From: Parcubacteria group bacterium Gr01-1014_8
GTDB lineage: Bacteria > Patescibacteriota > Minisyncoccia > Phycocordibacterales > UBA2100
Direction: 5' to 3'
Assembly (NCBI GenBank): GCA_007376385.1
Contig: VMGC01000005.1
Coordinates: 119,386-183,385 of the forward strand
DNA length: 64,000 nucleotides
This document shows, one piece after another, positions 7,885 to 64,000 of the stretch (the stretch's first letter is position 1; every line of letters starts with the position of its first letter). The notes below the pieces were generated by a model. It was not told the origin of the DNA, did not search any database, and saw nothing but the letters and a program-made list of their open reading frames with translations. The translations under genes were made by a program, and so were the position numbers.

Positions 7885-8057
7885 AGTGTGTGCTCATTAT
7901 GATGATAATTATTAGGAACCCAGTATAGCAAAATCACCTTTTCAGAAGACTTGAAACAAATTGCCTGTCCGCAGCGTACTAGGGGCAATGCGGGGTAGGT
8001 TTATCCGTGCATTAAGCGCTGTAAGACGCCAGCAATCGTTTGCGTCTGTATACACAT

Positions 8058-8789
8058 ATGAATCAGATCTTATTTGGGGTTATTGCATTATTTATGTTCA
8101 CAATTACCGGTATAGGTATTGCGGAAGTAAAGACGCAAATGTTTACCAACGCAAACGGCGAGACTAACTCGGAGGTCATCTCTGACGACTCAGGGGCTGC
8201 GCGCGTCACATCTCAATCGCAAGTTTCAGCAGCGGCCGCTGCCTCTCCTAAGAATAGCGGCGGGGTTTCGGCGAGTGTAGGCGTAAACGCGAAGGCCGCC
8301 ACCACTGTTCCGGAAGTTTTGGCGGCGGTTGCCCGCGAGGTTGAGGGCGCACTATTTAGCGGCTGGAGCGATGACGGTGAGGACGAAAATGAGCACGAAT
8401 ATGGGGACGACGATGAGGACGATGAGGATAATCGCTCGTCGAATCGCACGTCTCAAACGAACACGGCTCCCGCGCCAACGCCAGCTCCTGCTCCAGCACC
8501 GACAGCATCATCGAACACAAGTACAAACACAAGCACTTCCGTGAGCACCGTTGCGACATTTACAATGTCCGATGTTGCAGCGCACAATTCATCAGCAAGT
8601 TGCTATTCGGCAATTGGCGGGTCAGTCTACGATCTCTCCTCGTTCGTGACAAAACATCCGGGCGGACAGGCGGCGATAAAATCCCTGTGCGGGGTAGACG
8701 GAACTGCGGCATATAACGGCCAGCATGGCGGGCAAGGCACTCCCGCATCGGTACTCGCACAATACAAAATCGGCGTCGTTGCCAACTAG
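8058..8789 (+). CDS. membrane-anchored protein with a C-terminal cytochrome b5-like heme-binding domain
   Basis: An N-terminal TM segment, an acidic/Pro-Ala-Thr-rich low-complexity linker (EDENEHEYGDDDEDDEDN, APAPTPAPAPAP), and a C-terminal FTMSDVAAHNS...YDLSSFVTKHPGG motif (HPGG heme-binding signature). Confidence 0.6.
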   Translation: MNQILFGVIALFMFTITGIGIAEVKTQMFTNANGETNSEVISDDSGAARVTSQSQVSAAAAASPKNSGGVSASVGVNAKAATTVPEVLAAVAREVEGALFSGWSDDGEDENEHEYGDDDEDDEDNRSSNRTSQTNTAPAPTPAPAPAPTASSNTSTNTSTSVSTVATFTMSDVAAHNSSASCYSAIGGSVYDLSSFVTKHPGGQAAIKSLCGVDGTAAYNGQHGGQGTPASVLAQYKIGVVAN

Positions 8790-9206: not shown

Positions 9207-11072
9207 AGATTCTGTTGTTAGGCCGAAGCCGCGCGGGAAAAGAGGCCGCGCACTAGCACTCGAATCTGTCCAGTCGAATGGAAGTTGCTTGATTGAGCGC
9301 GGCCAGTACATGGGAAGTTTTCCGCCAAAAGGGACGTTGCCGAAGAGCGCGTCAGCGACACCTTCTCCTTCGCTGCCGGGAAGCCATGAAGCAACGAGAG
9401 CGTCCCAGTTGGAAATATCGTCGGTGATGATGAGCGGTCGCCCGGAGATAAGTATAACTATAAGATGCCGCGTCGAAGCGCGGAGCCGTTTGATTGCGGC
9501 CATGTCATCCGCACTCAGCGTCGGATTCGCCGCATCTCCCCATCCTTCAGCATATGGCTTTTCGCCGACGATCGCGATGCCGATGTCCGCGATATCTTTT
9601 TCAGCAAATGTGCCGTCTTTGTCATATTGCACGATCGCGTCTGGACCAGTTGCCTGGCGGATGCCGGCAAGGATCGATGTCGCGCCGGGAAGCCAATTGC
9701 CGTCAACGCCTTGCCATTCCACGGTCCACGCACCTGATTGCATACCGATATTGTCCGCTGCGCTGCCCGCAATGCGTATCTTTTTTGAATGTATGGAAAG
9801 AGGGAGGATACTATCGTCATTTTTTAGAAGAACGAGAGATTTCCCAACGGCTTCGCGCGCGAGCGCTCGATGCAGCTCCGAGCCGATGACAGAAAGGTCC
9901 ACAGCAGCATCATCTGCATCAAAGAGCCCGAGAGCAAATTTCGCTCGGAGGATCCGTCTCGCCGCATCATCGATGCGACTCTCGGAGATTGCGCCTCGCC
10001 CTACTGCTTTTTTAACGTCGGAAATGAATTGCACATAGTCATAGGGGAGCATCACCATATCAACACCGGCGTTGATGGCAGTAACGGTCGAATCATACGT
10101 ACCAGGAGCTATCTCATATATCCCGTACCAATCGGAAACGACGAACCCATTGAAATGAAGTTCATTTTTCAAGACGTCGGTCAGTAAGTAGCGGCTTGCC
10201 GACACTTTCGTATCGCCCCATGCATTGAGGCCCGTCATGATGCTGAGCGCATTTGCTTCGATTGCGCGCTGGAATGGAGGAAGATATGCGTCTCTCAGCG
10301 TTTTTTCGTCAGGCGGAGTGATTCCTTGATCGATAAAAAAATCTTTGTTGCTGGAAGTCTGCCATGCCATGCTCCCCGCGCCGATATAATGTTTCGCAGC
10401 TGCCGCAACCGCAGGCGTAAATTCTTGAAGACCGCGGATATACGCGGCGCCAAGCTCTCCAGCAAGTTCTGGGTCATCTGAAAAGGCTTCGTAGATGCGA
10501 CCCCATCGTATATCTGTTGGCAGATCAAGAGAAGGTGAGAAATTCCACTGTGCGCCTGTTGCAAGCGATTCTTCCGCAGTTGCGCGCGCTATATGTTCAA
10601 CAAGTTCAGGATCTCGCGTTGCGCCGAGTCCCAGTGCGTGCGGAAAAATAGTTGCGTCCGGTACGTTTCCGTTTCCGTGGTTTGCATCGACTCCGTAGAG
10701 AATCGGAATGCCGATGCGTGACGAGCGGGATGCGTTCGTGAATTGTCCTATCATCGCGCGCCAGCCTTCGGGGGTATTGTTCTCCGGCTTGCCGCCAGCG
10801 CCGCTGAGAATCGCACCGAGGCCGTATGTTGCAACGTCATCAAGTTCGTGCACGCTGTTTTTTTCGACGAGCGCCATCTGACCTATTTTCTCTTCGAGCG
10901 TCATATGAACGAGCAGGTCGTTGACGCGCGCATCGATGGGGAGCGTTTCATCCCCATATATCGCACCATTCAGTGAGGGTGGCATGTTCCGCGGCGATGC
11001 CACCAATACGAGGGCGACGATGCCTGCGGCAATGAAGAGTAGATGTATTACATGAGAAGGAGAAATCTGCAT
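9180..11072 (-). CDS. glycoside hydrolase family 3 (beta-glucosidase / beta-hexosaminidase-like), signal-anchored
   Basis: 630 aa. GH3 N-terminal domain motifs GQMALVE, IPILYGVDANHG and the FVVSDWYG nucleophile context, plus a C-terminal GH3 domain. The N-terminal hydrophobic segment acts as a signal anchor. Confidence 0.85.
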   Translation of the reverse strand: MQISPSHVIHLLFIAAGIVALVLVASPRNMPPSLNGAIYGDETLPIDARVNDLLVHMTLEEKIGQMALVEKNSVHELDDVATYGLGAILSGAGGKPENNTPEGWRAMIGQFTNASRSSRIGIPILYGVDANHGNGNVPDATIFPHALGLGATRDPELVEHIARATAEESLATGAQWNFSPSLDLPTDIRWGRIYEAFSDDPELAGELGAAYIRGLQEFTPAVAAAAKHYIGAGSMAWQTSSNKDFFIDQGITPPDEKTLRDAYLPPFQRAIEANALSIMTGLNAWGDTKVSASRYLLTDVLKNELHFNGFVVSDWYGIYEIAPGTYDSTVTAINAGVDMVMLPYDYVQFISDVKKAVGRGAISESRIDDAARRILRAKFALGLFDADDAAVDLSVIGSELHRALAREAVGKSLVLLKNDDSILPLSIHSKKIRIAGSAADNIGMQSGAWTVEWQGVDGNWLPGATSILAGIRQATGPDAIVQYDKDGTFAEKDIADIGIAIVGEKPYAEGWGDAANPTLSADDMAAIKRLRASTRHLIVILISGRPLIITDDISNWDALVASWLPGSEGEGVADALFGNVPFGGKLPMYWPRSIKQLPFDWTDSSASARPLFPRGFGLTTESLKNPKSNR

Positions 11073-29319: not shown

Positions 29320-29350
29320 CTTCACGATTGTTTAAGACTTTTGAAAATGC

Positions 29351-29420
29351 TAGGTTCTTGCGGTGATGTTGACCATCCATTCGATACCAAATTTTTCGGT
29401 GAGCATGCCGAACGTGTCAC
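29351..29420 (-). pseudogene. 3'-terminal remnant of a PhnB-like VOC gene (…GDTFGMLTEKFGIEWMVNITART*)
   Basis: Hand translation of the minus strand. Matches the C-terminus of the intact gene at 32210..32638 (…FGMFRDKYGIEWMVEF…). Confidence 0.45.
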
Positions 29421-29548
29421 CCCGCGGTAGTTGAGGATGGGAGCCTGACTTCACCAATCCCGTCACCGACGCACAATCGGCTCAAGCGCTAAAAGTACCT
29501 TTTCAAAAAGGCAAATCGGTATCCAAAATATAGATTTGTAATTTAGAC

Positions 29549-30334
29549 TTATTTTCGAGTCGCATACAGAACCGCTACTGTACCGAATACTAAAAATGGC
29601 CATAACAGCCACGTTGCAAGAGGAATCCCAAGAAAAAGCGAATCTAAGATTGTGCTAGTCTGCCATGTATAGGCCCACTGCTTTGCCGCGATGTTTGGAA
29701 GTTCTTGGATAAGCATGAAAACGTATGTCGCAGAGAGCGCCGCCACAAGTGTCGCGCGCCAATTCTGTAAAAAGTCTCGGACAAACGAACTGTGGGAACG
29801 TCGTTCTGAGATGATAGAAAGCATTGCGCAGACAACAAGCAGAAACGAATATGAACCGAGCACAATAGAAAATCTTGAATGAAGGTTAGCAAAGAAATAC
29901 AGCGTAAGAATTGTTGAGGCGATGCAAATGACTTTTGCGATGCGTACAGGATTTTGGCGCACTTCGGTCGCAGGAGTTTCCTTTGCGCCGAAAACTTTTC
30001 TCCCATACAAATATGACAGCACTATTATGAATCCGCCTGCAGGGTATGCCCATGCAAACAAAAGAATATATTCAACAAGCGAATCGTAATTATAGTGCCA
30101 TGCGTGCGCGAGACGCAGACCACTAAATTCAACCGCGAGCCCGCCCATAAGAAATACAACGTACAGAAGAATAATTTTCCCACGCGAGCGCAATTCTGCG
30201 GAGATCGTTGGAATGAGTAAAAGGAGAAGCCCCAACAGAAGAAATTCAAAGAAATGATTGTAATGAAAGGAATACGCAAGGCTGAGAGAGAGGAGTGTAA
30301 TGAACCCCCCTGCCGCGACAAGAACCTTGGTCAT
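29549..30334 (-). CDS. hypothetical polytopic membrane protein
   Basis: About 260 aa from MTKVLVAAGGF with about 8 TM segments. The ORF track extends to 30493 through the gene-remnant repeat. Confidence 0.45.
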   Translation of the reverse strand: MTKVLVAAGGFITLLSLSLAYSFHYNHFFEFLLLGLLLLLIPTISAELRSRGKIILLYVVFLMGGLAVEFSGLRLAHAWHYNYDSLVEYILLFAWAYPAGGFIIVLSYLYGRKVFGAKETPATEVRQNPVRIAKVICIASTILTLYFFANLHSRFSIVLGSYSFLLVVCAMLSIISERRSHSSFVRDFLQNWRATLVAALSATYVFMLIQELPNIAAKQWAYTWQTSTILDSLFLGIPLATWLLWPFLVFGTVAVLYATRK

Positions 30335-30404
30335 GAAGAAAAGTATATCACCCCTACCGCCACACGAACGGCTGGCGTTTTCCTGCGCGACGAGCTCTAA
30401 ATTA

Positions 30405-30470
30405 CGACTTTTTTGCGGTGATGTTGACCATCCGTTTCGTTCCGAATTTGTCGGTGAGCATGCCGAACGT
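30405..30470 (-). pseudogene. second 3'-terminal remnant of a PhnB-like VOC gene (…GDTFGMLTDKFGTKRMVNITAKKS*)
   Basis: About 85 percent nucleotide identity to the 29351 copy over about 70 bp. Confidence 0.45.
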
Positions 30471-30547
30471 GTCACCCGCCGCGACTTATCCAAAGGGACG
30501 ACAGGTGCGATGCCTGACGAGAGCTTGTGCTATAGTGTGGCCATCAT

Positions 30548-30763
30548 ATGTTGACAACGATATACAAGAAAGTTCGCTCCGGGTACGTTGCATGGGTTGA
30601 GGAAATCCCGGGTGTTAATACACAGGGGGCCACTAAAGCGGAGGCCAAGGCTAATCTTGCAGATGCGCTACGGGAGTTTGTGGCCGCTCGCCGAATGCTC
30701 ACGAAGCGGGAATCTGCTCGTGGCGAGTCGCTTGTGCGCGAAAGCATCCCTGCCTTCCGCTAA
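30548..30763 (+). CDS. hicB: HicB-family antitoxin
   Basis: YVAWVEEIPGVNTQGATKAEAKANLADALREF is the typical HicB/UPF0150 fold sequence. Confidence 0.75.
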   Translation: MLTTIYKKVRSGYVAWVEEIPGVNTQGATKAEAKANLADALREFVAARRMLTKRESARGESLVRESIPAFR

Positions 30764-30957
30764 TGAAGCGAACAGAACTTGAACGGTATTTGCGTGCGCA
30801 TTCGTGTTACCTGCTCCGAGAGGGCAGCAAACATTCGGTATTTCACAATACGAAGAATGGCTAGACCTCAACAGTTCCAAGGCATACTGAAATCTTTCCA
30901 ACACTTGCGCGGAAAATCTGCAACGACCTTGGAATTCCACCCATCAGGAAGAAATAG
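30763..30957 (+). pseudogene. hicA: HicA-family toxin gene inactivated by an in-frame TAG at codon 34
   Basis: MKRTELERYLRAHSCYLLREGSKHSVFHNTKNG-TAG-TSTVPRHTEIFPTLARKICNDLGIPP. The start overlaps the hicB stop (TAATG). Confidence 0.6.
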
Positions 30958-30970
30958 AAAAGTGTTCTTT

Positions 30971-31216
30971 TTACCGATGAATACAGCCGGCCCAGCAGCA
31001 GGGGCGGCGCATGCCGCTTTTCATCTTTGAAAGCGCCTTCTCGATACGGATATTTCTCGTTTCCGCTTTCTTACCGGAGATTACCCAGCAAATCCATTCA
31101 TTGCGCGCGAGCGGCGTAATATCCTCCCACAATGCCCGTACCTTAGGCGTCTGGCTTATGGCATTTCGTAAATCCTCAGGTAGTTTATGTACCGTACCGT
31201 TGGCGAGCTTGGTCAT
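30971..31216 (-). CDS. YdeI/OmpD-associated family protein
   Basis: KLPEDLRNAISQTPKVRALWEDITPLARNEWICWVISGKKAETRNIRIEKALSKM matches the family pattern. Confidence 0.6.
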   Translation of the reverse strand: MTKLANGTVHKLPEDLRNAISQTPKVRALWEDITPLARNEWICWVISGKKAETRNIRIEKALSKMKSGMRRPCCWAGCIHR

Positions 31217-32059: not shown

Positions 32060-32209
32060 GCTCTGATTGTATCAGAAGTTCGAACGTCAACTGCCATCCA
32101 AAAAAGAATGGTTTTGTTAAGAGACAAAATCACGTGCTCCTCTGTGTCTCCAATCTTCGAACCTTCTTTACTGCCAATAGAGTGTTTGTACCTCTATAAG
32201 CCTATTAAG

Positions 32210-32638
32210 TTATTTAGCGGCTGGAAACTCAACCATCCACTCGATACCATATTTGTCTCGAAACATGCCGAAATAGGAACCCCAAGGGCTATTAGCCATA
32301 GGCATCTCTACAGTGCCACCTGCCGAAAGCCCGTTGAATATTAGTTCTGCTTCTTCCTTACTCTCTGTACTGACCAAAATTTTACTTCGATTTTCGTTTT
32401 CATTCACTTTACCCATAAACGCAGGTACGTCATTGGCCATCAACACGTTACTTTTACCGATGGGTAAAGTGATGAGCATAATTTTCTCTGCCTCGGTGTC
32501 TGACACTGGAAATTCTGGACTCGCTAGATCTTTGAAACGAGTAATCTTTGTAAAATCACCCCCAAATATTGATTTATAAAATGTAAACGCTTCTTCAGCA
32601 TTGCCGTTGAAGTTAATCCAAGGATTTATCGTTGTCAC
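32210..32638 (-). CDS. VOC family protein, PhnB-like
   Basis: 142 aa. Carries FYKSIFGG, …VLMANDV… and the C-terminal …DKYGIEWMVEF. Confidence 0.7.
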   Translation of the reverse strand: MTTINPWINFNGNAEEAFTFYKSIFGGDFTKITRFKDLASPEFPVSDTEAEKIMLITLPIGKSNVLMANDVPAFMGKVNENENRSKILVSTESKEEAELIFNGLSAGGTVEMPMANSPWGSYFGMFRDKYGIEWMVEFPAAK

Positions 32639-32672
32639 ATGATGAGTATATCAGAAGGGTCGAACTAATTTG

Positions 32673-32744
32673 CTCCCCGGGTAGGACTCGAACCTACAAC
32701 CAACTCCTTAACAGGGAGCTGCGCTACCATTGCGCTACCGGGGA
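32673..32744 (-). tRNA. tRNA-Asn (anticodon GTT)
   Basis: Hand-folded cloverleaf: acceptor TCCCCGG/CCGGGGA, D-stem GCGC, anticodon loop CTGTTAA, T-loop TTCGAGT. Confidence 0.85.
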
Positions 32745-33490: not shown

Positions 33491-35593
33491 TTAAGGAAGC
33501 TCTGGCATCGGGATTTCTGTTCCCGGACACATAAGCATATTTATCATACGCTGTGTTGTCTTATAGACGTAGCCGGTCGGCATGTTTTGCTTGAGGCCGA
33601 ACGGTATCCATGGAGCAAGAATTTCATCCGCATACTTTAATTGGAATGCTTTGACAGCACCCCTGGTAGCCGCGTCAAATTCTCCGTTCACTTCAAGAGC
33701 AAGCCCCATTTCCTTGTTTAGGAATTCCTGAAGAATCTTAACGTCATCAGCTGTTTCTTTTCCTTTACCAATGTAAGACGTGAGGAGAATGGCCGAGCAC
33801 GATGCGCTCGCGACTTCGCCTGCCACCTCTTCAACAACCGCTTCGCCGATGTCAGACGTAGCAGGTTCTGCCGGCGTTTCAGGTGCGGACGGAGGACACG
33901 GAACGCCCCAGCAGAATATGACCCCCTCATAAGGAGACGGATCTGTCGTGCCACCGTTGTCCGGTGTAGAAGTGCCCTGCGGCGTTTCTACAGTTTCTGC
34001 GCACGGAAGTTCCGTCTGTATTCCGTCTTCTGGGCAGAGATCGGTCTCTTCTTCCGATACTTCACTGCAATCCTCTTCGCTCAACTGAATGCCATCAGTA
34101 TCAGGGCAGACATCATCGCTTGAGCAGGGACCGATCAACTGGAAGTCAGGATCTTCAGGGCATGCATCCGGAAGGGGAATTTCTATGCACACCGGAGGAA
34201 TGCCGATATATCCGGGCGGGCACGACTCGGGAGTTACTTCGTCGCAATCGTTGGTTTCAGAATTGTATACCTGACCTTCCGAGCATGTCGGAATTTCCTC
34301 GCAGGTGCTTCCGTTCCAGGATCCGGCGGGATCGAGTGCGAGGCACTCTTCTTCTGTATCAACAGGGTTTGGCGGGAACGGAGTGTCATCACATACATCA
34401 CCAATACCGTCGCCATCGCTGTCGAGTTGGTCTGCATTTGCGTCAACAGGACAATTGTCTTCCTCGTTTACGACTTCGTCGCCGTCTACATCATCGTCGC
34501 AGACATCTCCTATGCCGTCGCCGTCGCTATCAGCCTGATCGGCGTTCGCGGTAACAGGACAGTTATCCTCTTCATCAGTAATGCCGTCGCCATCCGCGTC
34601 AGTATCCGGTGCGGGAATTTCCACTTCAAATGAGAATACTGCGTCGCCGGACGATTCAGCGCCCGGAGGATTCTGGTGGTACAGCTTCACCGTCACCGTG
34701 TATGTGTCCGGTGTCGAGTAGGCGTGAGAGTTGGTCCAAGGGCCGGAGAATGTTTTGTTGCCGCTCGTCGAACCGTCCGGATCGACAAAATTGAGCGTCG
34801 AGAAATCGTCAACATTTCCGTCGCCCCAATTTACCTGCACATCGTGCTGGCTGAACTGGCCTACGTAGGGGTCGGCCGAACCGGTACCCGTAAGAGTCAA
34901 CATGAGGAGCTCAATGTCTACAGGCTGGTCGACGGTGACTTGGTAGCCTCCTGTGTCCCCGACAACGTCACCCGTTATGGCAACGCCGTCGATGCGGAAA
35001 TTCTCTGCGCTATGGTTTGCACTGTTTCGGAAGCGGATAAGGAAATCGCTATCAGATGATGCGGGCACAGCGACACTTTGCTGTGAGCTCCAGCTCGCAG
35101 AGTTTGCGTCCGTATCATCGAGCTCGTGGGTCGCGAGCGTGTTCCAATCGGTGTCGCCGTCGCCACACTCATTTTCGTTGCCACTTTCGCTGTATTCTAC
35201 AACGCCTTTTTCGCCGTCTTCGGCATCGATATCGCCTCTCCAGTAATAGTTGATGTTGAAGTTTGTGAAGCCGTTAACTCCAGCGTCGCCATCTATTTCG
35301 CGGCAAATCCACTCGCCGTTTGCTATCTTTGCAAAACGTGCGCCGTTTGGGCTCGCCACGTCTTCACCTGAAACCTGCGCGGCGCGTGCGAGCGTTGTGG
35401 AATCGTTATCGTTTCCTTCCTCATCCCAGTTGGAAATGTTGCTAGAATCTGTCACCCCAGTACCGAATGACTCCACGGAAAGAACCGTAGCGGCCATGAC
35501 GCCCGTGGGGTAGAAGACCCCTGTGGTGACGAGAATAGTAATAAAGCTCAATACCTTGACCGAAATTGACCCTCTGATGTCGTGCTTAAACAT
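33491..35593 (-). CDS. large secreted protein with thrombospondin type 3 (Ca-binding) repeats and a C-terminal peptidoglycan-binding domain
   Basis: A signal peptide. TSP3 repeats (DTDADGDGITDEEDNCPVTANADQADSDGDGIGDVCDD repeated twice). A Cys-rich acidic region. A C-terminal PG_binding_1-like segment (DVKILQEFLNKEMGL...ATRGAVKAFQ). Confidence 0.75.
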   Translation of the reverse strand: MFKHDIRGSISVKVLSFITILVTTGVFYPTGVMAATVLSVESFGTGVTDSSNISNWDEEGNDNDSTTLARAAQVSGEDVASPNGARFAKIANGEWICREIDGDAGVNGFTNFNINYYWRGDIDAEDGEKGVVEYSESGNENECGDGDTDWNTLATHELDDTDANSASWSSQQSVAVPASSDSDFLIRFRNSANHSAENFRIDGVAITGDVVGDTGGYQVTVDQPVDIELLMLTLTGTGSADPYVGQFSQHDVQVNWGDGNVDDFSTLNFVDPDGSTSGNKTFSGPWTNSHAYSTPDTYTVTVKLYHQNPPGAESSGDAVFSFEVEIPAPDTDADGDGITDEEDNCPVTANADQADSDGDGIGDVCDDDVDGDEVVNEEDNCPVDANADQLDSDGDGIGDVCDDTPFPPNPVDTEEECLALDPAGSWNGSTCEEIPTCSEGQVYNSETNDCDEVTPESCPPGYIGIPPVCIEIPLPDACPEDPDFQLIGPCSSDDVCPDTDGIQLSEEDCSEVSEEETDLCPEDGIQTELPCAETVETPQGTSTPDNGGTTDPSPYEGVIFCWGVPCPPSAPETPAEPATSDIGEAVVEEVAGEVASASCSAILLTSYIGKGKETADDVKILQEFLNKEMGLALEVNGEFDAATRGAVKAFQLKYADEILAPWIPFGLKQNMPTGYVYKTTQRMINMLMCPGTEIPMPELP

Positions 35594-60757: not shown

Positions 60758-60897
60758 CATGCATTATCTTCCGCTGAAGATATGCGCGACCCCGCCTCGT
60801 CCGCCCAAGGCGGACTCCGGCCTTGCGAAGCTGCGCACGCTCGCTTCTCACCCCTCGGAATGGACAATCCTACCTGCCCGTTCGCTGCTTATATCTG

Positions 60898-60969
60898 TGC
60901 TCCCAGTAGGAATCGAACCTACATTACAAGCTTCGGAAGCTTGCGTTCTATCCGTTGAACTATGGGAGC
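60898..60969 (-). tRNA. tRNA-Arg (anticodon CCG)
   Basis: Hand-folded: acceptor GCTCCCA/TGGGAGC, D-arm GTTC-AACGGATA-GAAC, anticodon stem CAAGC/GCTTG, loop TTCCGAA, T-loop TTCGATT. Confidence 0.85.
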
Positions 60970-61004
60970 AGCGACTTCGGGTCCATTGAACGACGGGAGG
61001 TATG

Positions 61005-61075
61005 TGGACCTACGGGGAGTCGGACCCCGACCTCGTCCATGCCATGGACGCGTTCTACCGCTGAACTATAGGCCC
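61005..61075 (-). tRNA. tRNA-Ala (anticodon GGC)
   Basis: Hand-folded: acceptor GGGCCTA with a G3:U70 wobble (the Ala identity element), anticodon loop ATGGCAT, T-stem CGGGG/CCCCG. Confidence 0.8.
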
Positions 61076-61124
61076 CATGTGAAGGACGTGAGAAAGAATA
61101 TACTACTGGCGCGAGAGCGTCCAA

Positions 61125-61358
61125 CTAATCTTCGAGCGGGCACGTGTTTCTGACTATCGCCAAAAAAATGAGTGTACTTACGACAAAAAAAGGAGCGAAA
61201 CTAAGCAATGTGTCACTCGCTGAATGTGATGCGAGATCAAGGCGTCGAAAATAAATGACATTGCCGAGCACCCAAACGATAGTGATGAGCCATGCCTGCC
61301 ACGTAATCGGTTTCCAGCACCATCCGTTGAAGGTCTTTCTAAACCAGTGTTGGTTCAT
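61125..61358 (-). CDS. small 2-TM ORF embedded in the tRNA array (questionable)
   Basis: 77-aa ORF ending 6 nt from the tRNA-Pro 3' end. It is hydrophobic but has no support beyond the ORF. Confidence 0.2.
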   Translation of the reverse strand: MNQHWFRKTFNGWCWKPITWQAWLITIVWVLGNVIYFRRLDLASHSASDTLLSFAPFFVVSTLIFLAIVRNTCPLED

Positions 61359-61363
61359 ATTTT

Positions 61364-61434
61364 TCGGGCTGTCGAGAATCGAACTCGAGCCACATGACCC
61401 CCAGCCATGCGTACTGCCACTATACTACAGCCCG
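61364..61434 (-). tRNA. tRNA-Pro (anticodon GGG)
   Basis: Hand-folded: C1:G72 acceptor CGGGCTG/CAGCCCG, anticodon loop CTGGGGG, T-loop TTCGATT. Confidence 0.8.
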
Positions 61435-61512
61435 GCAAAAAGGCAGGCCTCCAGTCCATCGTCGGGCCGTCTGGTGAGGATGTGGCGACGCACATTCGGA
61501 GAAATTCTTTTG

Positions 61513-61583
61513 TCGGGCCGCCGGGAATCGAACCCGGTCTTTACGAACCCGAATCGTACGTACTACCGGTATACTACGGCCCG
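61513..61583 (-). tRNA. tRNA-Pro (anticodon CGG)
   Basis: Hand-folded: acceptor CGGGCCG/CGGCCCG, anticodon loop TTCGGGT, T-loop TTCGATT. Confidence 0.8.
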
Positions 61584-61744
61584 GTAAAAGAATTTCTCAC
61601 CAACTCGTTCATGCTACCTTATTTACGGCCCGACGATGGACTTGAATGCTGGCCTACAACATACCGTGATTCGTACGGTCTGTTGTTGGAGAATCGTAAC
61701 AGAATCTGTGAATATCTGCACTTCAGAAAGTGCGTGTGGTCACG

Positions 61745-61942
61745 GATAATTTCTTGCTAGAAATTTCCGCGACCCCGGCTTGGCCCGTCGGCCTCCGCCT
61801 TGCACATGCTGCGCTTCGCTCGCTACAGTGGTCAGGAATATTTTCCTTGTCGACACAAGGAAAATTTCACGACCCTGGCTCGCGGTTTCGTTTGCTAACG
61901 AAACATCGCTCCGCCTTGCACAAGCTACGCTTCGCTCGCTTG
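61745..61942. repeat. two imperfect tandem units of about 100 bp (GAAATTTCCGCGACCCCGGC…CTCCGCCTTGCACANGCTNCGCTTCGCTCGCT) directly 3' of tRNA-Val; a related motif also lies 3' of tRNA-Arg (about 60790-60855)
   Basis: Hand alignment of the three copies. Each carries a different but self-complementary hairpin after the shared motif. Confidence 0.5.
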
Positions 61943-62016
61943 TGCACCCTTCAGGATTTGAACCTGAGACCTTTCGAATGTGAATCGAACGCTCTAACCA
62001 GCTGAGCTAAGGGTGC
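61943..62016 (-). tRNA. tRNA-Val (anticodon CAC)
   Basis: Hand-folded: acceptor GCACCCT/AGGGTGC, D-arm GCTC-AGCTGGTTAG-AGC, anticodon loop TTCACAT, T-loop TTCAAAT. Confidence 0.85.
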
Positions 62017-62215
62017 GTTACGGGATTATAAAGGCTAGCGAGTGGTATTGCGAGACACAGGTAAGCAGGAGTTGGTAGTCTCGTCTATTACCATACCACC
62101 ACACCAGGTTTCCTCGATCCGACTGGTGTGGTGCGACCAATTTTTTTTCCGGTATCCGGCTTAGAAAAATGGAAGTGCCCGTGTGGTAGTATGACAAAGG
62201 TTCCTCGAAGCGAGC

Positions 62216-62300
62216 TCCTAGGTATTGAACCTGTGTTTGTTCCTCGGCTCGGAAATGCAAAAGTGCTCTTTTGCATTTCACTCGCAACGCTCGCAAATAA
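62216..62300 (+). repeat. element of about 88 nt, copy 3 (5' part diverged)
   Basis: …GGTATTGAACCTGTGTTTGTTCCTCGGCTCGGAAATGCAAAAGTGCTCTTTTGCATTTCACTCGCAACGCTCGCAAATAAA. Confidence 0.5.
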
Positions 62301-62306
62301 ATCTAC

Positions 62307-62771
62307 ATGGAGACGAAATATATCTTAGTGCCATTCGCAGCTGCTTTTGGTCTTTTTATGGTGGCGTGGCTTTTTGCTTCAATGATAGGGGTACCGTCTC
62401 CGGGCCATGCGATAACAAATTTTGATGAATGTGCAGCGGCAGGGAATTCGATAATGGAATCGTATCCAAGGCAATGCTCTGCAAACGGACAAACGTTCGT
62501 CGAAGAAATTTCGTCAGGAATGCCTGTACCAGGCGCTGTGGTGTTTAACAGCTGTGCTGTTGCAGGTTGCAGCGGTCAGCTCTGCGTCTCTGCCGTCGAA
62601 GCGGAAAATATAATGACAACGTGCGAGCATCGCCCGGAATATATTTGTTATCGCGATGCATCATGTGAGCCGCAGCAAAACGGCGAGTGCGGATGGACAG
62701 AGACGTTGGAGCTGAAACAGTGCCTTACGAACCCGCCACCCGAGGAGCCTATTGATGTCGAGATGATCTAG
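62307..62771 (+). CDS. secreted Cys-rich hypothetical protein
   Basis: 154 aa with a signal peptide and 12 Cys in the mature part. Confidence 0.4.
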   Translation: METKYILVPFAAAFGLFMVAWLFASMIGVPSPGHAITNFDECAAAGNSIMESYPRQCSANGQTFVEEISSGMPVPGAVVFNSCAVAGCSGQLCVSAVEAENIMTTCEHRPEYICYRDASCEPQQNGECGWTETLELKQCLTNPPPEEPIDVEMI

Positions 62772-62946
62772 TCGCGGCATAAGAAACTTTTTGCTACCAT
62801 TGTCCCGCACGGGCCTATATACAGGAGCCATATAGACCCTTCGTTCGAAAAGAATGTAAGCGAGCTTCCGCTCTTTTCTCATTGGGGCCTATAGTAAAGT
62901 GGCATTACGCAGCATTCGCATTGCTGAGGCAGGGGTCCGATTCCCC

Positions 62947-64000
62947 TTAGGTCCACCAAAATTGATTTGCCGAAGAAGTTGCCTCGGGGCTTCGCCCCTC
63001 GGCATTGGTTTCCGCCAAGAAATTCCAGGGGGTTTTGAATTCCGCCAAAAGCATTCCCGCCGGTTCGAGCCAATGATTGCCTTTTCGTTCAAAATCACTC
63101 AATTTCTCCTCAATCGTTTTCTTTTCCGCCATTAAAATATTTTTATTTTCTTGATACTCGGCAAGCTCCAACGCCTCTGCTAAATATGCGTCTGTTAGTC
63201 GCTCCAATCGTATTTTAATGGCGGAAATATTATCGCGGAGATTTTGAGCGAAAAGGTCTGACGAGTGGCGGGATTCCGATTGCTCGCTTTCAAGGCGAGC
63301 AAGATATTTTTCCCGCCATTCGTCGGGCAAAGAAACTTTTTGACAAAGATTTTTCACTTGCTCGGTTAGCACTTCTTCCCGCAAAAAGCGATTTTCAGTA
63401 CATTCAATAGTTTTGCTCTTGTGGGTGCAACGATAGTAAATAAATTTCAAACCACTTTTCTTTATATGTCGCTCGGCGGTTATGGCGTAGCCACATACCC
63501 CACAAGTAGCAAAGCCTAAAAACTGAAAATTCTTTGGTCCTCGCTTTTTGCGGGGTTTACCATTCGCTATACGCGCCTCTTGGATTTGGTCAAAAAGTTT
63601 CTTTGAAATCATTGGCTTATGCGATCCGGCATGCACCTCGCCACGATATTGAAAATGTCCGTAGTAAAAAGGATTAGTCAAAATATGCTCAACCGAGGCA
63701 AGAGCGAGGTGCTTGCCGGTCTTGCCAACCAAGCCGACAGAAAACATTTTGCGCTGAATACCAGTGAGCGTAAATTGTCCCGTAGCAAAAGCCCCTAAAC
63801 ACTCCTTTACTTTGCCAAAAGTTTTTCTATCAGGTTCAATCGTCCGAAGTCGTGGCTCGTTGAAATATCCGAGAGGGGCTTTTGCCGAAAGTTCACCACG
63901 ACGTATTTTTTGCCGAATACCGCGCAAAATGTTTTCTCTTAAATTGTCGGTGTAATATTTTGCTTGTCCGAAAGCGACACTCAACATAAATTTTCCTTGG
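62947..64000 (-). CDS. large serine recombinase (recombinase domain plus zinc ribbon); the N-terminal catalytic domain lies beyond the window edge
   Basis: …YYTDNLRENILRGIRQKIRRGE… (resolvase/recombinase linker region). The recombinase-domain zinc ribbon CGVCGYAITAERH…YYRCTHK. A C-terminal coiled-coil. The ORF is open to the window end. Confidence 0.75.
   Translation of the reverse strand, partial: QGKFMLSVAFGQAKYYTDNLRENILRGIRQKIRRGELSAKAPLGYFNEPRLRTIEPDRKTFGKVKECLGAFATGQFTLTGIQRKMFSVGLVGKTGKHLALASVEHILTNPFYYGHFQYRGEVHAGSHKPMISKKLFDQIQEARIANGKPRKKRGPKNFQFLGFATCGVCGYAITAERHIKKSGLKFIYYRCTHKSKTIECTENRFLREEVLTEQVKNLCQKVSLPDEWREKYLARLESEQSESRHSSDLFAQNLRDNISAIKIRLERLTDAYLAEALELAEYQENKNILMAEKKTIEEKLSDFERKGNHWLEPAGMLLAEFKTPWNFLAETNAEGRSPEATSSANQFWWT

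Follow-up and report, generated by a model that had tools for sequence, protein, structure and literature searches.

An intact hicB beside a hicA frame interrupted by an in-frame TAG: probable toxin-first erosion of Class 2 hicBA in the genome of a Parcubacterium

The Class 2 hicBA modules described by Gerdes (2024, mBio, PMC10865869) are the most common arrangement of this gene pair and form an experimentally untested class, in which hicB precedes hicA, the genes overlap, and the antitoxin spans 63-103 codons and lacks a recognisable DNA-binding domain. Within HicA, alpha2 is the helix contacted by HicB in both modelled and solved complexes (PMC10865869). The HicAB systems of E. coli K-12 (PDB 6hpb) and Burkholderia pseudomallei (6g26) have the same HicA fold as the locus studied here, as judged from a model of its closest intact relative (TM 0.59-0.77, probability 1.00), and the N-terminal domain of their HicB is weakly similar to the HicB of our locus; the sequence similarity to these systems is marginal (E 0.011 for HicA and 0.2-0.9 for HicB), and in E. 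coli the gene order is reversed, with hicA first. Toxin-antitoxin systems are also known in an eroded state. In Photorhabdus, pseudogenised copies were reported for 41 of 50 functional toxin-antitoxin systems, pseudogenisation was called frequent and 'toxin only' pseudogenes made up one category, while the non-functional toxins were mostly truncated and point mutations were found in only two of them (Belot et al. 2026, Mol Biol Evol, PMC13617665).

The locus described here lies in a 64,000-nucleotide stretch of the genome of Parcubacteria group bacterium Gr01-1014_8, an uncultured organism from groundwater; this stretch is hereafter the window. The locus and is very likely a Class 2 hicBA type II module in which hicA was knocked out by a real, single C-to-T transition and hicB was left intact. 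The module has the hicB-then-hicA order of Class 2, a HicB of 71 codons that falls within the class range and carries no recognisable DNA-binding domain, and genes that overlap in a TAATG; it differs from the class in the premature stop within hicA, with which the pair would no longer work. Its likeness to the eroded systems of Photorhabdus (PMC13617665) consists in a disabled toxin open reading frame with a retained partner gene and neighbourhood, and its difference from them in that one point mutation interrupts an otherwise complete frame, which indicates an early stage of erosion. The features of the locus, in window positions, are the following.

30548..30763, plus strand: hicB, intact open reading frame of 71 aa, with ATG at 30548 and stop TAA at 30761-30763
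30761..30765, plus strand: TAATG overlap of the hicB stop and the hicA start, one base common to both genes, context cgcTAATGaag
30763..30957, plus strand: hicA, read as a pseudogene, a 64-codon frame broken at codon 34
30763..30864, plus strand: 5' part of hicA, still translatable, 33 codons and a stop, covering alpha1, beta1 and beta2 and including Gly21 and His24
30862..30864, plus strand: premature TAG, codon 34, in the beta2-beta3 turn
30865..30954, plus strand: 3' part of hicA, untranslated, codons 35-64 with beta3 and alpha2, in frame and conserved
30955..30957, plus strand: natural hicA stop, TAG, at the same end position as in all homologues

The antitoxin gene is annotated by NCBI as a hypothetical protein (TSC85654.1, locus tag G01um10148_1040). 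The initial annotation had called it an intact hicB, and this holds, as all columns that are invariant among the HicB relatives are kept in the window gene. Its product was assigned to the single-domain (UPF0150/HicB-like) type, from which a DNA-binding domain is absent: the Pfam family UPF0150 matches residues 4-48 with 25.4 bits, slightly under the gathering score of 27.3, and is the sole Pfam match, with no match to HTH, RHH or Phd/YefM families. The protein shares 74-86% identity with the 69-75-aa proteins whose genes lie immediately 5' of intact hicA genes (L001, L002, L004, L005 and L006 aligned), and each of the intact hicA loci that were read is preceded by a hicB of 69-75 aa. A HicB-type gene lies directly upstream of hicA and is co-oriented with it in L001, L002, L003, L004, L005, L006 and L086; for the HicB homologue of L004, a precomputed hit to a profile of this kind is listed, unmarked. 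When a profile of the HicB relatives was compared with the PDB, the top four matches were HicB structures, all of them weak (E 0.2-0.9).

The hicA frame runs as it had been described at the outset: it begins at the hicB stop, with its ATG at 30763-30765, and codons 1-33 translate as MKRTELERYLRAHSCYLLREGSKHSVFHNTKNG before the TAG at 30862-30864, beyond which the frame continues for 30 codons, TSTVPRHTEIFPTLARKICNDLGIPPIRKK, up to the TAG at 30955-30957. The overlap of stop and start suggests that translation of hicA may be coupled to that of hicB. The proposal that the frame after the TAG also belongs to HicA was confirmed by Pfam, since the read-through product, with any sense residue at codon 34, matches PF07927 (HicA_toxin) with 32.8 bits, above the gathering score of 27, from residue 5 to residue 58 and across the TAG; the match holds only with the TAG read as sense. 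Eight HicA relatives, all intact and 68-86% identical, were recovered from a collection of 5.8 billion proteins and align with no internal gaps; seven of them are 64 aa long and one 61 aa, and one, from Candidatus Kaiserbacteria, carries the annotation type II toxin-antitoxin system HicA family toxin. Gly21 is present in 83 and His24 in all 84 of 84 HicA sequences, and the window frame has both. The histidine of this G-x-x-H motif, which aligns between the HicA profile and the E. coli HicA structure, is taken by us to be the catalytic His of the HicA active site. No PDB entry was matched by the narrow HicA profile at E <= 0.001; at E <= 10 the best match was E. coli HicA, and with E 0.011 this similarity is marginal. 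What sets the window gene apart from its family is the interruption of the frame at codon 34, and because TAG is a working stop in this genome, the locus is to be regarded as a hicA pseudogene and not as a functional member of the family. The gene is uncalled in the ENA, Logan and NCBI records, the NCBI tags _1040 and _1041 being hicB and the OmdA gene, respectively.

The consequence for the protein was read from an AlphaFold model of the closest intact relative (P0001, 86% identical; pLDDT 92.5), whose secondary structure elements are a helix at residues 3-12, strands at 15-20, 24-29 and 35-39 and a helix at 46-56. The six best PDB matches of this model are all HicA toxins, with TM 0.59-0.77, and the structures matched come from E. 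coli (6hpb), B. pseudomallei (6g26 and 4c26), T. thermophilus (1whz) and Y. pestis (4p78). Codon 34 maps just before beta3, in the turn between beta2 and beta3. The 33-aa product thus keeps alpha1, beta1 and beta2 together with Gly21 and His24 and loses beta3 and helix alpha2; on this model, we infer that it would be unable to fold and would be neither toxic nor able to bind HicB. After the premature TAG there is no in-frame ATG, GTG or TTG, so a C-terminal HicA fragment is not expected, and re-initiation as its source was rejected.

The codon from which the TAG arose can be approached through the relatives. The initial annotation had placed the TAG at a usually basic residue and had proposed a change from AAG. 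The first of these statements is true of the wider family, in which residue 34 is Lys in 32 and Arg in 22 of 84 sequences and Gln in 11, and does not extend to the close clade, in which Gln occupies the position in five of the eight proteins. The proposed AAG is probably wrong, since the comparison with hicA alleles of related genomes, which had been recommended and was carried out here, gave a sense codon with C as its first base in all five relatives for which DNA was available (CGG, CAG, CTG, CAA and CAG). This makes CAG (Gln34) to TAG more parsimonious than AAG to TAG, which needs a Lys ancestor, and Lys is encoded by none of these five. The lesion is therefore, on sequence comparison, most likely a single C-to-T transition.

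The two halves of hicA have dN/dS values of 0.02-0.07 relative to these genes, about 0.06 on the 3' side of the stop, at synonymous sites that are saturated (dS >1.4); such values imply that purifying selection has acted on the frame for almost its entire history. Beyond the premature TAG, the hicA frame has neither another stop nor a frameshift. The amino-acid changes private to the window are K31, T47, R50 and N54 in addition to the stop, and three of these four lie after it. The number of private non-synonymous codons (5) is comparable to the 3-6 of the four closest relatives, with 13 in the more distant L006. Position 54 is Lys or Arg in 82 of 84 sequences and Asn in the window, and this K54N change is the only hint that selection on the 3' half may have been relaxed; it is not significant, the comparison being underpowered with saturated synonymous sites. 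As the dead 3' half has acquired no further stops or frameshifts and not many substitutions, the mutation appears to be young, and we infer that the knock-out is recent compared with the split from the nearest known relatives. The earlier suggestion that the toxin was recently inactivated and the antitoxin kept is supported by the undamaged and conserved downstream frame as well as by the intact hicB.

Nonsense mutations of hicA were also found elsewhere. Among the 80 best hicA homologues in GTDB species representatives, two have a single in-frame TGA directly behind an intact hicB.

CP197409.1, ~10010-10012: Pirellulaceae bacterium SH449, complete genome (L049), TGA at hicA codon 4
L059, ~539-541: Methylomirabilales metagenome-assembled genome, TGA at hicA codon 42

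These two genes resemble that of the window in having one in-frame stop in an otherwise alignable frame with an intact hicB upstream, and they differ from it in the use of TGA instead of TAG, in the position of the stop and in belonging to unrelated phyla. Codons 4 and 42 encode Arg in most hicA homologues. The origin of the three stops in different phyla makes them independent events, and their differing codons, positions and phyla read as the signature of random decay.

Two readings in which functional HicA is still encoded have to be weighed against a genuine knock-out, and one of them places the fault in the sequence. It could be suspected that hicA is really intact and that the TAG is an error of sequencing or assembly, or a minority variant which the assembler fixed, because the genome is metagenome-assembled and a single base separates the window hicA from an intact gene. 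The same TAG is present in an ENA contig (L088, ERZ27284378, 189,832 bp, MEGAHIT-style k139) and in a 27,304-bp Logan contig (L089), which was re-assembled from run SRR8863434 and ends elsewhere, at window position 31110. The two contigs show 100% identity to the window across 6.2 and 3.6 kb, respectively. Three recorded contigs encode an identical HicB protein; two of them were read, and both contain the TAG. The occurrence of the TAG in two differently built assemblies makes an artefact of the assembler or of polishing unlikely, with the reservation that the three TAG-bearing assemblies are identical over every base compared and may all stem from one sample or the same reads. Substitution errors are rare in short-read consensus sequences. 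Moreover, the complete isolate genome of the Pirellulaceae bacterium also has a nonsense-mutated hicA behind an intact hicB, which shows that such a state is biologically ordinary. An allele of the same species with a sense codon was not found, the closest relative being 86% identical at the protein level: the scan of genome contigs gave 73% identity as the best among the matches listed, a codon-aware DNA pattern scan of metagenome contigs yielded only two contigs, both with the P0002 (Gln34) allele, and exact-protein look-ups of HicB and OmdA returned only contigs identical to the window. Taken together, we regard an error, which had been among the initial interpretations, as unlikely.

The other reading is that the TAG is decoded, either constitutively, by recoding or pyrrolysine, or conditionally, by leaky near-cognate read-through or with a suppressor tRNA, and that the cell still produces some full-length HicA. 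It fits with the Gln at codon 34 in most close relatives, with the TAG-to-Gln decoding known from recoded phages with suppressor tRNAs (bioRxiv 10.1101/2021.08.26.457843, PMC9523058) and with the well-conserved 3' half of hicA, which a recent mutation explains equally well. In this organism TAG is a normal stop. It terminates 19 of the 51 long non-overlapping open reading frames of the window, compared with 21 for TAA and 11 for TGA, and hicA itself ends with it. The search for TAG codons inside conserved genes, which had been advised as a check for recoding, revealed no excess, since same-frame pairs of open reading frames are split by one TAG in 24 cases and by one TAA in 25; the most striking TAG-split pair consists of two complete unrelated genes, for a VIT1 protein and a family 3 glycosyl hydrolase, and the TAG ends the VIT1 gene at full length in Pfam (model positions 1-214 of 214). 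On stop usage, the split counts and this full-length domain, genome-wide recoding of TAG was rejected. Neither a suppressor tRNA nor a known RNA element was found in the 64-kb window, in which ARAGORN and Rfam detected only seven ordinary tRNAs, none with a CUA anticodon, and no Rfam element near hicBA. A structure that promotes read-through was rejected, as the 116 nt at and after the TAG form no stable RNA structure and fold no better than shuffled sequences (z = +0.62); a scan for promoters and terminators around the hicBA operon gave no signal beyond that expected from shuffled sequences. In the other interrupted hicA genes the stop is a TGA and falls at unrelated positions, which speaks for random decay rather than for a conserved device. 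Decoding of the TAG, put forward earlier as programmed read-through, thus finds no support in these data and is very unlikely, and the hicA TAG is no ground for suspecting that the genetic code of the lineage is altered. A special form of decoding would make hicA a conditional toxin, whose amber codon at a Gln position keeps it silent until a TAG-to-Gln suppressor tRNA, such as those brought by TAG-recoding phages (bioRxiv 10.1101/2021.08.26.457843, PMC9523058), restores wild-type HicA(Gln34); if this were true, the amber hicA would sense phages and set off abortive infection. The Gln position and the conserved 3' half are the sole points in its favour, both are explained by a recent random mutation, and we give this idea hardly any credence. 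It is just as improbable that the 33-aa N-terminal fragment is functional itself, for example as an attenuated toxin or a regulator of HicB. The fragment does keep helix alpha1, strands beta1 and beta2 and the invariant Gly21 and His24, and its TAATG coupling to hicB is still present; against this, it lacks one of the three strands and one of the two helices of a 64-residue single-domain fold, including the alpha2 that HicB contacts (PMC10865869), and the protein collection contains no homologue of 33 aa (all eight matches have 61-64 aa) and no record of the exact 33-aa sequence.

A real knock-out of hicA in a Class 2 module remains by far the most probable explanation. A single CAG to TAG change in hicA would end translation after residue 33. 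From the logic of toxin-antitoxin systems, the toxin is expected to be lost first, whereas loss of the antitoxin first poisons the cell. Loss of the toxin would have been free of cost to the cell and prior loss of the antitoxin lethal, which would explain why hicB is still intact; HicB would now be drifting towards loss or be retained as an orphan antitoxin. The locus thus probably represents a clean, early stage of erosion, in which a Class 2 hicBA module from the candidate phyla radiation has lost its toxin first. Nonsense loss of hicA is an ordinary and common decay route for such gene pairs, for which the window and the 2 of 80 homologues examined provide data points of a nonsense-disabled hicA. 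In practice, the annotation should read "HicB family antitoxin" and "hicA pseudogene (internal stop)", and beyond annotation the finding is of little importance.

The hicBA locus is chromosomal and partly syntenic with L005, a contig from SRR6213120. The order common to both comprises an HTH gene, a DUF2975 gene, hicB, hicA and, on the opposite strand, OmdA. The TAATG overlap is also present in L005, where the hicB frame runs to the overlap and ends with -SR, compared with -FR in the window. Between the DUF2975 gene and hicB, about 1.9 kb differs from L005, which lacks this stretch; within it lie the membrane protein gene and the two PhnB/VOC remnants described below. From these comparisons, the neighbourhood appears to be variable and hicBA to have been inherited with its flanks. 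The surrounding features mentioned below are these.

29549-30334, minus strand: gene of a 261-aa membrane protein, family unassigned, flanked by two PhnB/VOC remnants
30971-31216, minus strand: OmdA/YdeI-family gene, locus tag _1041, beside hicBA
32210-32638, minus strand: intact VOC gene, more distant (62% identity over the repeat)
32672-32744, minus strand: tRNA-Asn gene, directly beside the intact VOC gene, on the margin of the variable stretch in which hicBA lies
33491-35593, minus strand: gene of a 700-aa protein with thrombospondin type 3 repeats and a peptidoglycan-binding domain
60897-62958: six tRNA genes (Arg, Ala, Pro, Pro, Val, Ala)
8040-8789, plus strand: gene of a 249-aa protein with a C-terminal cytochrome b5-like haem/steroid-binding domain (Pfam Cyt-b5, 64 bits)

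The OmdA/YdeI gene lies downstream of hicBA on the opposite strand in the window, L001 and L005, and about 1.4 kb upstream in L002, L003 and L086; the cluster to which it belongs at 90% identity comprises 106 members, drawn from several Parcubacteria lineages. The Logan contig ends inside this gene at 31110, 150 bp past hicA, while the ENA contig continues through, and the break may reflect strain variation or a repeated k-mer. Decayed C-terminal remnants of the PhnB/VOC type were found on the minus strand at 29344-29422 and 30399-30477, and a related stretch lies at 32204-32282. The two remnants are 84%-identical direct repeats, 1055 bp apart, whose translations end with GDTFGMLTEKFGIEWMVNITART and GDTFGMLTDKFGTKRMVNITAKKS, each followed by a stop; either a tandem duplication or an insertion at the 3' end of the VOC gene could have left them as a scar. 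The membrane protein gene enclosed by them was considered as a counterpart of the DUF817 gene that adjoins hicBA in L001 and L005, and this was rejected, as tblastx and Pfam showed no similarity. The 700-aa protein may, from its domains, be a surface or adhesion protein of a presumed episymbiont. The cytochrome b5-like domain of the 249-aa protein is, to our knowledge, unexpected in a Parcubacteria genome.
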